A stretch of 63,997 bases of DNA, filler included, from Thermoplasmatota archaeon (GTDB taxonomy: Archaea; Thermoplasmatota; E2; JACPAO01; JAHFTW01): assembly GCA_041623215.1 (NCBI GenBank). It is 6 parts of 6 records of this genome, joined end to end, with 100 filler letters (N's around TTAATTAATTAA, not from the genome) between each part and the next. Parts side by side here need not be neighbours in the genome. Positions count along the whole stretch, not along the records: positions 47,101 to 58,164 come from JBFJXH010000056.1; positions 58,265 to 63,997 come from JBFJXH010000112.1; 4 more parts are not named here. One strand, written 5' to 3'. This document shows positions 58,101 to 63,997 of the stretch, one piece after another. The first letter of the stretch is position 1. Each line of letters begins with the position of its first letter. The position numbers are program-made.

Positions 58101-61100
58101 CGGCCGCGAGGGTGCCGTTGGCCGGCGCCCGGTTGTAATGCACGACAATGTCGTGGCCATCGGCNNNNNNNNNNNNNNNNNNNNNNNNNNNNNNNNNNNN
58201 NNNNNNNNTTAATTAATTAANNNNNNNNNNNNNNNNNNNNNNNNNNNNNNNNNNNNNNNNNNNNCCGGACACGTATGACTACGAAATCGGCCTCTTCAAG
58301 GCCGCCACGGCTCGCGAGTCAGGCGGCGTCCGCGAGAGTTACGATGACCCCTTCTCCATCGAACAGCGCCAAGACAACGGCTCCCGACACACGATTCACG
58401 AACTCTACCTCGCCTACGTGCAGCCAGAAGAGGTGGATGACGAACCGGAGCCGGCAGGCAATGCCACCGGCAATTCCACCGGAGAGGCCCTTGGTGAAGG
58501 CGAAGATGGCAACCTAACCTTCGACCTCAACCGAACCGACTACGTCGTCGCAGCATGGCTCGAAACGGCCCAAGAGCCCGGAAACAGCAGCATGCGGTAC
58601 GCCGGATTCATTGACTTCGCCTTCACAGAAACGGGCGGACGCAACAATTGGACCCGCCTGAATGAAACGCAAATCATCGGGCCCTGCAAGGACTACAGCA
58701 ACATCGAGGCTTGGGACGGCTTGGTGTACGTTGCCTGCAACGTGGCGAAGGGCTACGACCACCGGCCACGCGCCCGGATTGGTGACATTGATGTCTGGAG
58801 TTTCGACCCCACCACGGGCGAAACGGAACTTCTGGGCACCACCGGCCTCAATGGTGGGCGTCCCCGGCTCGCCATTGCCGACGACGGCTACATGGGCATT
58901 GTCACCAGCCGCTGGCACAGCATGCAACAAGTCGAGGTGCGCATGGCTGCCGGCTGGTACGGGTACCAATGGGAGCCGCTACCCGGCGACTTAGGTGGGC
59001 GCCTGCACACGTGGCTTGGCGGCCACGACATGTGGGATGCCGACGTGACCGCAGTCGAAATGACGCGTGACCACGTCATCTGGATTAGCTACAAGGAGTG
59101 GAACAACCGCACCCAGGACAATCTGCCCGAACCGGACCCGTCGGACCCCAGCAACCTGGATGGCGTTCGCTTGGTGGACTTCCGTAAGATGGTCTTTGCC
59201 ACCGACATGTGCAGTGGCCCCATAGCTGGCGTTGAGATGCAATTGGGCACGCAAGTGGATGCCTACAACTATGACATCTACAGCCAGGACCCGGGTGCCT
59301 TCAATGACCACCAAGACGGTCTTCACCGCGCTATCGACCCACTTACCGGCCAGGAATTCCTGTACTTCGCTGTGAACGATTACGGGGCGATGCAATTCGG
59401 CGCCATGTACTTGGAGGGCCAGCCTGGCTTCTGCCCGCCTCCGCCCCCACCACTCAATCCCGGCATCCTGCCGGTGCCACAGGCCCTCTCTGTGGCAAGC
59501 CCCAACACCGCCATCATCGGCAGCGCCTTCGGCGTGGCTAGTGTGGCGGCCATTACGTACCTACTAGCCGTCAAACGGCGCAACCCGATCGCCGCCGTCG
59601 CGGAGGACCGATGATGAAACAACGACTGAGCCATGTGGACCCCCATGATTGGGTGGCCGCACAGAAGATCAAGACCACGGCTGACGTGAAACTGCCCCAG
59701 CGCCTCATTGACGAAGTCATCGGCCAAGAAGAAGCGGTGGCCGTAGCCAAGAAGGCCGCCCGGCAAAGCCGGCATTTACTGCTCTTGGGCGACCCTGGCA
59801 CGGGGAAGTCCATGATTGCGAAGGCCATGGCCGAACTGCTGCCGGAAAGCCACTTGGACGACGTTCTAGTTCGCGCCAACGCCAAGGACGAAAACCAGCC
59901 GTTGGTTGAAATCCACAAGGGCGGCGAAGGTCGAGCCCTGATGTTGGAAGAAGTGAAGCAGGCCAAGAAGAAGGCACGTGTCTACACGTTTGCCGAATGG
60001 GGCATGGCTGGCTTGTTCGTCTTCGCTGGACTGTACGGCCTCATCGCTCTTGGTGGCTTCCAAGGCCTGATGGCCGTGCTTCTTGCGACTCTCGTGGCGG
60101 TGTTCTTCCTGCACGTGGCCCGGCAAAACCGGGGCAACGTGGCAAAGGACGTTCCCAACCTGCTCATCGAGCGACCCGACACGCCCATTCCGGCGCCCTA
60201 TGTCGACGGTACCGGCAGCCATGCCGGTGCCCTTCTAGGCGATGTGCGCCACGACCCGTTCCAGTCCGGTGGGCTCCAGACGCCCACGCACGAACGCGTT
60301 GAGCCCGGTGCCATCCACCGCGCCCACGGTGGTTTGCTGTTCATTGATGAAATCAACGTGCTCCGGCTGGACTCGCAACAAGCACTCCTTACCGCCATGC
60401 AAGAGGGCAAGTACGCCATCACGGGCCAATCGGACAAGTCAAGCGGTGCCATGACGCGAACCGAGCCGGTGCCGTGTCAGTTCATTCTAGTGGCCGCCGG
60501 CAACATGGACGTCATTGCGCCGACGGACAACCAATACACCGGCCTGCACCCCGCCCTGCGCTCGCGTATTCGAGGTTACGGCTACGAAGTGTACGTCCGC
60601 AGCGCCATGGACGACACGGATGACAATCGCTTGAAGCTCGTCCAGTTCGTCGCCCAAGAGGTTCGCCGAGATGGTAAGATTCCGCACTTTGATTCTGCTG
60701 CGACTGGCGAAATCATCCGAGAAGCCCAACGCCGCAGCGGTCACAGCGGCAAGCTCACACTGCGCCTGCGTGAACTGGGCGGCCTCGTCCGCACAGCCGG
60801 TGACCTAGCACGCGACGAAGGACGTGACGTTGTAACCGTCGAGGACGTGGTTGGCGCCAAGCGCATGAGTCTCAGCCTCGAGCATCAAGTAACGCTTCGC
60901 GGCATTGAACTTACGACGGCCAAGGAAGCCATGGATACCTCCGGCGCCCTCGTGGGCACCAGCCGCAGCTGCGCCTTCCTTGGTACCGGCGAAACGGGCG
61001 AACCCGCCGGCATCGTGGTCCCCATTGAAGCCGATGCCACGGTTAGCAGTAACAAGAACCGCGGCACGCTCTTCGTCGGCGGAGGCTTGGATCGGAACAA

Positions 61101-63997
61101 CACCATTCAGGACAACGTGGGGGCGCTTCTGAAGCGTCTGCGCGGAGCCGACATGGCTGGCATTGACTTGCACGCACAGGCGCTGCTTGAACAACCGTCG
61201 GCCGACGTTGGCGCACTCGGCGCGGCGACGGCCGTCGCTTGCATCAGCGCCCTGGAGGGACTCCCCGTCCACCAAGATGTTGTCGTCATTGGCAACCTTG
61301 GTGTGAGTGGCCGGCTGCGCAGCGTCGAAGGCATCACTCAAATGATTGAGGCCGCCGCCGACCTCGGCTACTCCACGGCCGTAGTCCCGGCGGGCAATGC
61401 CACGGACGTGCTTCTGGAACATGGCTACGAGGACCGCATCAAGGTGGTCTTTGAAGATCACATGGCGGGCGTCGTAGCCCACGCCCTGAAGGCACCCAAG
61501 ACGCGCGTCAAGCTGGTCCAAAACGCCTTGCAGCGCAAGTAGCTGCCTCACAGGCCTCAACGACGCCACGGCGCGGGTCCGGGACCAAGGTCCCCGCTGC
61601 CCGGGTGCCCCTTCGCCGCTGGCTGCCCTTTCCCTTTAACCCCGGCCGCCAACTGCCGCCCCCGTGTTCAAGTCGCTGCTGGTTGCCAACCGAGGCGAGA
61701 TTGCGTGTCGCGTGATTCGCGCGGCCAAAGCGCTGGGTGTGCGGACGATTGCCGTCTATTCAGACGCCGACCGAGGTGCCCTCCACACGCGGCTGGCCGA
61801 TGAGGCGATTCACGTCGGCCCCGCCCCCAGTAGCCAAAGCTACCTGGTCGTGGACAACATCTTGGCTGCCGCCAAGGAATCAGGCGCGCAAGCCATTCAC
61901 CCCGGTTACGGATTCTTGTCGGAAAACGCGGACTTTGCGCGCGCCGTCCAGGCTGCCGGAATCGTTTGGGTGGGCCCCCCGCCGGAGGCAATGGACCGGA
62001 TGGGCGACAAGACGCAGGCGCGAGCCGAGGCGGAAGCAGCAGGCGTTCCCGTGGCTCCTGGCAGCCCCGCGTTGGCCGATGCACAGGACGCCGCCACGTG
62101 GGCAAGCAAGGTAGGCTACCCAGTCATGCTCAAGGCGGCCGCGGGCGGCGGCGGCATGGGGATGCGCGTGGTCCACGACGCCAGCGTCATCCAGGCGGAA
62201 TTCAAGGCGTGCCAAGATCAAGCCCGTTCGGCGTTCGGCGTCCCGGACGTGTTTCTCGAGAAATTCATTCAGCGGCCCCGCCACATCGAGGTGCAAATCT
62301 TGGCGGATGGGCACGGCAACTGCATCCACTTGTACGAGCGGGAATGCAGTATTCAGCGCCGTCATCAGAAGCTGGTGGAGGAAGCGCCCAGTCCGGCGTT
62401 AACGCAGGAACAGCGCGTCGACATTGGGGCCAAAGCGGTGGAACTTGCCAAGCGCGTGGGCTACACCAATGCGGGCACGATGGAGTTCCTGTATGAAGAT
62501 GGAAACTTCTACTTCAACGAAATGAACACGCGGATTCAGGTCGAACACCCTGTCACGGAACTCGTCACAGGCGTAGACCTCGTGCAATGGCAATTGCGCA
62601 TTGCCAGCGGCGAAGAGTTGTCGATTCGACAGTCTGACGTGGCGCTCAAAGGGCACGCCATTGAGCTTCGCATCAATGCCGAAGACCCGCGCCGCGACTT
62701 TCTTCCGACGCCGGGGCCGGTGCATCGCCTCCGGTTACCGGTCGGAGACGGCATTCGCGTGGACCACGGACTCATCGAGGGGTGGACCGTACCAGATTGC
62801 TACGACTCCATGGTGCTCAAGCTACTTGCGCACGGCCCCACTCGCCGCGAAGCCATTGACCGCGTTCTCCGGGCGACAGGGCAACTGGACGTGGATGGCG
62901 TGGGCGTCAACACGGTTTGGCACCAAGCCTTGCTCCAGGACGAAGCGTTTCTGGCGGGTGACTTGAGCACGCGCTTCTTGGAGGAACGAGATATCCTGCG
63001 ACTCGACCCTGGCCCGGACGCTCGGCGCCGGGCTGCCGCGGTGGTCGCCGCCCTAGTGAATGCACCCGGCGCTGGTCTAGCTGGCCTGCACGCCCGCCAA
63101 GCGCGACCGCCCATGGTCCAGCGCTCAAGCGGCGAGCGCACGTGGGAGGTTGCATGATGCGAGCCGTCATCGACCTCGACGGCCACCAGTTCGACGTGAA
63201 GCTAGAGCCCATGGACTCGGACGAAGCCGACACGGCCGGGCCGCCGCGGTGGCGGGCCACGGTGGACGGTGAGGCATTCGAGGTCGTTGCAAGGGAGCCT
63301 GGCATCATGGAGTCCGGTGGCAGCATGCACACCGTGGCTCTGGCCGGCGACCAAGTCATCGTGAATGGTTCGGCTGCCAAGCTTTGCATCGAGCACTTGG
63401 ACGGCGTGGCAGGCGCCCAAGGTGCCGCCGCCGGCGACGGGACGATTCGGCCGCCCATGAATGGAACAATTGCCGATGTTCTTGTTTCGCCCGGAGATGC
63501 CGTCGGAGCCGGCGACGTGTTGTTTGTGCTGGAAGCGATGAAGATGCAAAATCAGGTCAAGGCGCCCATGGCGGGCACCGTCGCGGACGTCGGCATCAAG
63601 GTTGGCGAGACGGTAGTGCCGGCCCAGGTGGCAATTCGCATCACGGCCGCGTAGCAGGTTCCGTGCATCCACGGCAGCGAGCCGAGCCGGCTTCCCAAAA
63701 CCTCCCAAACGGGGTTGGAGCGCCGCGCTTAACCCTCGGTCGGTCATGCCCGGCTCAATGGGCGAACGCGAAGCCGGCATCCGAGCTGACATTGAGCGCC
63801 TCGAGCGTGGCGGACCCAAGAAGTACCACGACAGACTTCCGGATGAAGGGCCCGGCAAGCGCTTCGTGCGCGACCGCTTGCAGCTGTTTTTCACCGAGGG
63901 ACTAGATTTCGAGGATGGCCTCTTTGCCAACAATCTCCGGGCAGACGAGGGTCTGGCGGCCGACGGTATGGTCACCGGCACTGGGACCCTTGGCGAC

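Follow-up and report, generated by a model that had tools for sequence, protein, structure and literature searches.

We know of no FtsH-like dislocase in Archaea besides LonB, and in chloroplasts Ycf2-FtsHi reportedly acts as the import motor. Archaeal LonB (TIGR00764; T. onnurineus 3k1j/4zpx, A. fulgidus 1z0b-1z0w) joins an AAA+ module bearing a transmembrane hairpin to a C-terminal Lon fold. The FtsHi pseudo-proteases are membrane AAA+ proteases that lost the catalytic motif, kept the ATPase and took on a motor role; built on the FtsH/M41 scaffold and heteromeric with FtsH12, they pull many preproteins through TIC (PMC8197885, available part). The action of m-AAA on Ccp1 and the Ser-mutated Pim1/LONP1 likewise provide ATP-driven pulling or folding help without proteolysis, either as a secondary function of an active protease or in an engineered mutant (PMC12994072, PMC5438985, available parts). 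In RadA/Sms and ComM, soluble DNA helicases with other ATPase domains, a Lon protease-like domain is the motor's hexamer scaffold (PMC11612176, available part).

The window analyzed here, a stretch of 63,997 nucleotides from a Thermoplasmatota archaeon (GCA_041623215.1), encodes an extra membrane LonB that has lost both cutting residues and kept every ATP-motor motif (Table 1). It differs from archaeal LonB in the natural loss of the Ser-Lys dyad and GDSA motif, in being additional to an ordinary LonB, and in having a fixed surface-propeller partner. Unlike FtsHi, it has the Lon scaffold, one co-encoded partner and no channel gene; its domain is Lon_C, with no M41 among the Pfam matches listed, and it resembles FtsHi in working only. 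With RadA/Sms and ComM it has only the Lon domain in common, and the m-AAA and Pim1 cases are not natural dedicated dead paralogs. The survey's proposal of a new use of the Lon scaffold is too wide, since the Lon domain is already an oligomerization scaffold in RadA/ComM and Ser-mutated Pim1 is a chaperone. No description was found in the literature searched (subscription papers being mostly outside its coverage) of a complete pseudo-LonB that occurs naturally, is anchored in the membrane and has a surface partner of its own. Assignment to the MoxR-vWA-beta-propeller ternary system was rejected, PF20030 scoring 21.5 against a cut-off of 27 bits, and no vWA domain was found among 10 neighbour proteins scanned against Pfam.

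Table 1. Features in the window of the C112 dead-LonB locus and of the probable upstream part (C53) of the second one
Feature	Position	Strand	Remarks
Second partner gene, 5' half	12351..13145	-	Contig C53; cut by contig end; 65-68% identical to partners of L092, L093, L131
BNR/Asp-box lipoprotein gene	13142..14698	-	Directly upstream of second partner; relative at L092 matches BNR_2
Exported FG-GAP/PQQ-type propeller protein, ~1600 aa, C-terminal anchor	14695..19509	-	Family flanks subtype-C loci
Partner gene, 3' part (exported beta-propeller with C-terminal anchor), 449 aa	58265..59614	+	Cut by contig start
Pro-rich linker of partner	59435..59503	+	Residues 391-413 of frame
Ala/Gly/Ser-rich transmembrane helix of partner	59510..59572	+
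Partner tail, 13 residues, predicted cytoplasmic	59573..59611	+	Basic cluster, then Ala-rich; candidate motor handle (putative role)
Protease-dead LonB, 643 aa	59611..61542	+	Start overlaps partner stop (ATGA)
Walker A, intact	59788..59811	+
Transmembrane hairpin inserted in AAA+ module	59986..60120	+	Residues ~126-170; very short outer loop
Walker B, intact	60340..60357	+
Ala535 codon GCA at catalytic Ser column	61213..61215	+	Alignment to C125 LonB
Met578 codon ATG at catalytic Lys column	61342..61344	+	Alignment to C125 LonB

An additional LonB without the catalytic dyad

The dead LonB of Table 1 scores 630.3 bits against the LonB model TIGR00764 (cut-off 516.6). Since dead LonBs exceed this equivalog cut-off, they would be named ATP-dependent proteases, a trap for annotation. 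Two hydrophobic helices within the AAA+ module form the LonB-type transmembrane insertion. The C-terminal Lon protease fold is present (PF05362 match; TM 0.84-0.87, by target, to A. fulgidus protease domains), and the predicted structure keeps the whole LonB fold, with TM 0.89 and 44% identity to T. onnurineus LonB 3k1j_A. Canonical LonB carries the motif [E/D]GDSA[S/T] with the catalytic Ser (PMC2605481), and the canonical Lon Ser-Lys spacing is 43 residues (PMC9569914). The protein lacks this combination of motif and Lys; Ala535 and Met578 occupy the two positions at the same distance of 43 residues. In contigs from two public runs of one study, possibly the source data, the region is covered with no frameshift and both codons are unchanged.

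As the survey had stated, the genome combines an ordinary LonB (C125) with two dyad-broken ones, on C112 and C68. The former has Ala535/Met578, the latter Ser to Gly with Lys to Arg. Alignment and a motif check also bear out that the C112 copy keeps the membrane hairpin, Walker A/B and arginine-finger stretch; its sensors and pore-1 aromatic are kept as well.

The main count comprises 58 near-full-length dead copies, 50 from the host order and 8 from outside it; excluded were L129, L130, L131, L133 and L134, all five truncated at contig ends, and L077, which has an in-frame stop. Ser and Lys occur together in none of the 58, compared with 69 of 69 ordinary LonBs, which extends the earlier count of broken dyads in 28 of 28 loci from the order. 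The Lys column holds K in 2 copies, R in 12 and other residues in 44. In G080 and G262 the additional LonB matches retain both dyad residues. Walker A is intact in 57 copies, the remaining one being 5'-truncated; Walker B DE[IV]N, sensor-1, LRSRIRG and sensor-2 are intact in all 58, as is the pore-1 aromatic (F in 44, Y in 14). The third axial loop is varied, with seven residue types at position 276, where 66 of 69 active LonBs have Arg. Over 10 close pairs, dN/dS ranges from 0.06 to 0.19 in the AAA core and from 0.05 to 0.30 in the dead protease domain; dead LonBs, the dead domain included, are under purifying selection.

The dead copies form a single old clade (support 100/100). They are not offspring of the host order's own LonB, with which they have 47% identity and from which descent is rejected (AU p=1.1e-4). 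The loop GxG[ED]xGEPAG was rejected as a novelty of this clade; it is common to active LonBs of six other families and thus marks origin rather than new function. Of 289 genomes sampled beyond the order, 6 have the motor and partner pair, and in 301 genomes of the phylum the full-length partners outside the order come from 6 genomes, every one adjoining a dead LonB. One LonB per genome, as the survey reported for its 10 genomes from other orders, does not apply to six genomes, which belong to two other families.

The propeller partner and its pairing with the motor

The partner adjoins 54 of the 58 dead LonBs, 53 times upstream, as the survey had described, and once downstream; the other four lie at contig ends. 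It is absent from none; every one of the 54 loci that could be assessed, drawn from two classes, shows the pairing. In contrast, none of the order's 32 ordinary LonBs, 3 of which lie at contig ends, has a partner beside it, and 80 metagenome LonB loci have none either; the latter (Ser and Lys in 76, 1 unresolved, 3 cut or odd) are thus usable as a control only. The motors fall into four subtypes, which are found side by side in genomes and each pair with one or more partner clades of their own. Dead LonBs largely co-diverge with their partners: the Mantel r is 0.85 against at most 0.15 in 1000 shuffles, and 20 of 26 well-supported partner splits are found in the motor tree, with eight well-supported split conflicts. 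A lone partner gene is present at L164, and in several loci a motor is accompanied by two or three partners. Motor-partner fusion was rejected: long open frames at L059 and L134 are chance frames or N-terminal membrane extensions, no partner domain was found in 32 longer homologues (a weak argument), and no partner representative listed exceeds 764 aa.

The missing 5' part of the partner gene at the C112 locus is most likely on C172, where it follows a divergent Hsp20 gene; the rest of the second partner gene most likely precedes the second dead LonB on C68. The upstream frame does end, as the survey had reported, in a Pro-rich linker, a hydrophobic helix and a basic tail before overlapping the LonB start.

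The partner is an unnamed beta-propeller that probably has seven blades. A family model folded from a full-length relative (pLDDT 81.7) and its propeller matches agree with the fold proposed earlier. Foldseek places sialidases and GH74 at E ~3e-8, sialidases first at rmsd 7-15 A, other propellers stand at ~3 A in the VIA ranking, and YncE matches with Z 26.7 (297 residues at rmsd 2.8), CylK and Vgb being on a par with it; the strands count to seven blades, and the Atlas look-alikes are BNR proteins (best 0.91). Although BNR/Asp-box (sialidase-like) and other seven-bladed propellers have a like fold, the partner has no significant match to Pfam, NCBIfam or PDB sequences and forms a closed family of ~141 clusters at E<1e-30. 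Sialidases (GH33) are defined by a six-bladed BNR propeller and a conserved arginine triad; the partner is probably not one of them, R138 being the only Arg conserved at 70% or more in 124 aligned rows. Nor is it likely to be a PGF-CTERM protein: substrates of archaeosortase A carry a PGF motif before the helix (PMC9263693), absent from the partner ends inspected. NCBIfam gave no match for the C-terminal 67 aa or four full partners, and archaeosortase PF09721 was not found in this genome (88% complete), in a search whose control matched in only 1 of 14 genomes.

The tail has 13-19 residues in 98 of 117 partners; among the genome's 57 other C-terminal anchors only 2 fall in this range, and 49 have a tail of at most 11 residues. 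The partner helix is slightly less hydrophobic than these anchors (KD 1.91 vs 2.11); a looser, noisier control of 71 rows gave little difference. Tail sequence is loosely conserved. TonLonB F216 and M275 may gate the pore, which a literature search did not confirm. Tail charge matches axial-loop residue 276 in 24 of 27 subtype-A cases, an agreement noticed post hoc and equalled by other columns; charge complementarity is not supported, phylogenetically independent pairs giving 1.8 same, 1.0 opposite and 3.2 without change (sign test p=1).

A proposed non-cutting motor and alternative explanations

The lost dyad, the kept motor motifs and the adjacent partner gene point to a likely non-degrading motor pulling the partner's inner tail. 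Our preferred, still tentative, reading (probability about 0.45) is that dead LonB works on its partner as a dedicated membrane dislocase, which would hold on to this tail and pull it with no cleavage. Dead LonB subunits would assemble into a hexamer among themselves, the dead protease domain providing the ring scaffold. Because its outer loop has only a few residues, it would meet the partner within the membrane, where the helix and tail alone are in reach. Pore loops would grip the Ala-rich tail, and ATP hydrolysis would draw in the helix, which is weakly hydrophobic. Because the ~50 kDa propeller is folded, has two conserved Cys pairs and stands outside on a Pro-rich linker, it would not be threaded through in full; the pull would dislocate the protein in part and then let it go. 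The surface protein might thereby be reset, remodelled or shed with rhomboid help; the genome encodes two rhomboids, and m-AAA dislocates Ccp1 for rhomboid cleavage with its protease site largely dispensable (PMC12994072, PMC5438985, available parts).

The survey's proposal of a dedicated membrane unfoldase gains from dyad loss, the intact motor, pairing, selection, the longer tail and the improbability of mixed rings, while binding, pulling and extraction of the partner are still deduced from gene order, co-divergence and anatomy. Against dislocation, adjacent genes co-diverge even without contact of their products, and there are the split conflicts, the solitary partner and the multiple partners per motor. 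The tail is no longer than the 20 residues that mitochondrial AAA proteases reportedly need at least in vivo (in vitro the minimum is 10-20; PMC5438985, available part) and only loosely conserved; the available part of PMC13039401 does not mention tail length. Axial-loop diversity, otherwise a point in favour, could come from relaxed selection, and subtype-specific third genes, those for the S15 hydrolase and the FG-GAP giant, could encode the true clients. A complex prediction (two LonB 10-435 chains with the partner's last 65 residues) reached at best 0.25 against a mark of 0.32, with controls not folded, and is evidence neither way.

Another scenario, which we consider somewhat doubtful, is that the propeller is no substrate but a stable subunit with a receptor or adaptor role: it would bind an outside ligand or co-encoded exported protein and switch on or aim the motor, which remodels, folds or imports a client. 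The polar partner residues H125, R138, E277, K475, D515, D518 and D538, conserved in 85-100% of the 124 rows, could form a pocket; subtypes B and D adjoin an S15-family hydrolase in all 16 loci looked at, subtype C adjoins an FG-GAP/PQQ giant (11 loci), and several partners per motor fit interchangeable receptors. However, subtype A (29 copies, the C112 copy included) has no conserved same-strand third exported gene, and outside clients would reach the pore only via a membrane-crossing segment, because the motor is nearly without an outer domain. An unlikely further reading is an ATP-driven retractable-receptor machine, in which a pseudo-LonB ring, acting from the cell interior via one membrane helix, would make a surface propeller alternate between capture and release; propellers would be exchangeable, exported hydrolases co-encoded, and the cassette would have spread between archaeal classes.

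A general ATP-driven membrane chaperone, co-regulated with the propeller and without specific action on it, is improbable. Ser-mutated Pim1/LONP1 aids folding and assembly (PMC12994072, available part), and 11 subtype-A loci have a divergent Hsp20 gene upstream, but the invariant pairing, stop/start overlap, subtype-specific partners and special tail would stay unexplained. Quite improbable, too, are mixed rings with active LonB, or transfer of substrates to it, the partner being finally degraded: most genomes with a dead copy also show active LonB, and FtsHi acts in mixed rings with FtsH12 (PMC8197885, available part), yet the dead clade does not stem from the order's LonB, has its loop signature in common with active LonBs of other families, and its subtypes follow the partner rather than the host. 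Finally, it is highly improbable that the gene is a duplicate in decay or encodes a protease whose catalytic pair was replaced: Ser is kept in 14 of 58 copies, Arg stands at the Lys site in 12, K/R722 is given as permitted (PMC2605481), and Arg570 and Gln577 are retained across the clade, but Ser occurs with neither Lys nor Arg in any copy, GDSA is scrambled differently per subtype, and the low dN/dS excludes decay.

Implications for archaeal surface proteins

Remodelling, resetting and shedding of surface proteins in Archaea are poorly known, and the dead-LonB module may bear on these processes. As a natural two-gene module of a motor and a candidate client, it provides a simple system for pulling of membrane helices apart from degradation, and it parallels the FtsHi route from protease to motor. 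If the retractable-receptor machine is real, it would give Archaea an equivalent of energy-coupled receptor unloading or of the import motor formed by FtsHi.

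Catalytic residues and gene neighborhood of the C112 locus

The genome of the archaeon encodes three LonB proteins, on contigs C112, C68, and C125, of which only the C125 protein has the EGDSAS motif followed by a lysine 43 residues downstream. Ala535 and Met578 occupy the catalytic positions of the C112 protein, and Gly and Arg those of Ser and Lys in the C68 protein. Comparison of these motifs bears out the survey's finding of one normal LonB and two dyad-broken ("dead") paralogs. In contigs from two runs of one study, neither frameshifts nor changes at the two catalytic codons were found.

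Directly upstream of the C112 LonB is the frame of its partner, an exported beta-propeller protein with a C-terminal membrane anchor. The contig start truncates this frame, which closes with a Pro-rich linker, a hydrophobic helix, and a basic tail and whose stop codon overlaps the LonB start. Based on similarity to intact relatives and on shared neighbors, the 5' halves of the C112 and C68 partners most likely reside on contigs C172 and C53, respectively. The filler before C112 parts unrelated contigs; genes to the left of 58265 do not neighbor the locus. The biotin carboxylase gene that follows the dead LonB was found again in 11 loci of subtype A, the motor subtype of the C112 copy, which is probably plain synteny.

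Features of the C112 locus and of contig C53 (window positions)
Feature	Positions	Strand	Description
Contig C53	12350-23918		
Genes on C53	12351-19509	-	FG-GAP giant, BNR lipoprotein, putative 5' half of the second partner; consecutive, stop and start codons overlapping
Filler	58165-58264		N runs and short TTAATTAATTAA linker
Contig C112	58265-63997		
Dead LonB	59611-61542		643 aa
Genes after the dead LonB	61664-63997		Biotin carboxylase; biotin carrier; another gene, incomplete at the window end

Conservation and linkage of motor and partner

LonB matches were found in all 38 genomes of the order. A near-full-length dead copy is present in 35 of them; the three genomes without one, which are 74-83% complete, have no partner either. 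Ser and Lys occur together in none of the 58 dead copies vs. 69 of 69 ordinary LonBs; the count of dead copies omits five truncated at contig ends and one interrupted by an in-frame stop. Walker B, both sensors, the LRSRIRG stretch, and the pore-1 aromatic residue are intact in all 58, and Walker A in 57, the remaining one being truncated. Thus, the combination of a broken dyad with intact motor motifs holds on a larger set. Among individual variants, L077 (G001:C64) has one TAA in frame early in the gene, either a sequence error or a pseudogene, with the partner and an FG-GAP giant still adjoining. Two subtype-A copies, L059 (G015:C11) and L134 (G007:C10), are extended at the N-terminus by ~200 aa, which include three or four additional hydrophobic helices; their partner gene remains immediately upstream. 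An unrelated genome of the phylum encodes a 510-aa Lon-type ATPase (L315:769-2301, G080:C7) that lacks the protease domain and in which an insert with a Cys pair replaces the membrane hairpin.

The partner lies upstream of 53 of the 58 dead LonBs and downstream of one, the other four loci being unassessable, so the proposed adjacency stands. It is found beside none of the order's 32 ordinary LonBs (~3 kb of flank) and at none of 80 metagenome LonB loci. Outside the order, 6 of 289 genomes (in a sample of 301 from the phylum), from two families of another class, encode a full-length partner, always next to a dead LonB (8 loci); hence the earlier statement that other orders have one LonB each was incomplete. 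A seventh has only a weak, partial partner match with no LonB nearby. In some loci there is more than one partner (two or three), and a solitary partner also occurs. In the subtype-D loci L158, L159, and L161, two or three propeller genes from two distinct sub-clades, with different tails, and an S15 hydrolase gene precede one motor, and the subtype-B-like partner of L164 (G013:C1:337000-350500) has no LonB in the 13.5 kb examined, two dead LonBs being encoded elsewhere in that genome. Third genes are subtype-specific: an S15-family hydrolase at all 16 subtype B and D loci examined, an FG-GAP/PQQ giant at 11 loci around subtype C, and a divergent Hsp20 at 11 subtype-A loci.

Full-length partner relatives have ~540-730 aa and a signal peptide. 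The predicted structure is a beta-propeller (pLDDT 81.7), probably seven-bladed by strand count, with generic propeller matches only; BNR_2 matched marginally in 1 of 41 family members, and no sequence match was found in PDB or NCBIfam. The family comprises ~141 clusters at 50% identity with E<1e-30, beyond which scores drop off. Two pairs of Cys are near-invariant, as are several polar residues, of which only one is Arg. Across 52 pairs, motors and their nearest partners co-diverge (Mantel r 0.85). The motor tree shares 20 of the 26 strong splits of the partner tree, and there are eight strong conflicts.

Proposed action on the partner and alternatives

We tentatively propose, with a probability of about 0.45, that the dead LonB is a dedicated dislocase of its partner, which it would pull without full threading. 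Since few residues link the motor's two membrane helices, only the partner's helix and tail would be within reach. A ring of dead subunits would grip the Ala-rich tail and draw the helix inward. Being large, folded, and Cys-linked, the propeller would limit the pull to partial dislocation and release and would itself be reset or shed. According to two papers (PMC12994072, PMC5438985), m-AAA dislocates Ccp1 in this manner before rhomboid cleavage; the genome encodes two rhomboids.

The tail extends 13-19 residues past the first basic residue of the anchor in 98 of 117 partners vs. 2 of 57 other C-terminal anchors of this genome, a comparison whose p-values overstate the difference because relatives are not independent; 49 of these 57 controls end within 11 residues. 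The partner helix is slightly less hydrophobic than theirs. At least 57 proteins of the genome terminate in one C-terminal anchor; in many of these, Pro-Gly precedes the helix and a short Arg tail follows. A search for PF09721 (exosortase/archaeosortase) gave no match in this genome, which is 88% complete.

Two observations count against the dislocase reading. The tail does not exceed the 20 residues that PMC5438985 gives as the minimum in vivo for mitochondrial AAA proteases, and a charge match between tail and motor loop failed a phylogeny-aware test. This loop corresponds in the alignment to TonLonB 265-290, which is the third axial loop according to PMC9569914; its sequence varies far more among dead copies than among active ones, which may reflect specificity or relaxation. 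A propeller serving as receptor or adaptor for other clients is an unlikely but serious alternative. Less probable is a general chaperone, and slightly less so again the incorporation of dead subunits into mixed rings with active LonB.

Origin, selection, and relation to known systems

The dead copies all fall in one clade (FastTree support 1.0 on 127 rows; 100/100 on 32 rows), which stands on a long stem and divides into four subtypes. Active LonBs of six other families are its sister group (94/94) and carry the same loop signature, shorter by one residue than that of the order's own LonB. A tree joining the dead clade to the latter was rejected (AU p=1.1e-4), within the limits that long branches set to this test. 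Judged from these trees, the module of dead LonB and partner arose once, from the LonB of another lineage. It may have reached the order by an old transfer or survived differential loss.

In dead copies (10 pairs), dN/dS is 0.06-0.19 for the AAA core and 0.05-0.30 for the dead domain; in active copies (8 pairs), it is 0.01-0.11 for the core and 0.03-0.17 for the protease domain. The predicted structure retains the full LonB fold (pLDDT 85.7). The dead LonB is a maintained pseudo-protease, decay being excluded, and the combined alternative of a hidden protease or decay is the least probable of all.

Fold and family score both place the C112 protein in LonB; the defining dyad is absent. Closest in presumed mode of working are the FtsHi pseudo-proteases (PMC8197885), of which the dead LonB is not a member. 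The Lon domain is already known as a motor scaffold in RadA and ComM (PMC11612176). Inactive serine-protease homologs in general are tallied in PMC2605481, whose supplement may include dead Lons. A literature search covering mainly open journals found no account of a membrane LonB that naturally lacks the dyad and has a propeller as its partner. In summary, the module is real and conserved, and apparently undescribed; with its mechanism as proposed, it is a fresh form of the pseudo-protease motor theme.
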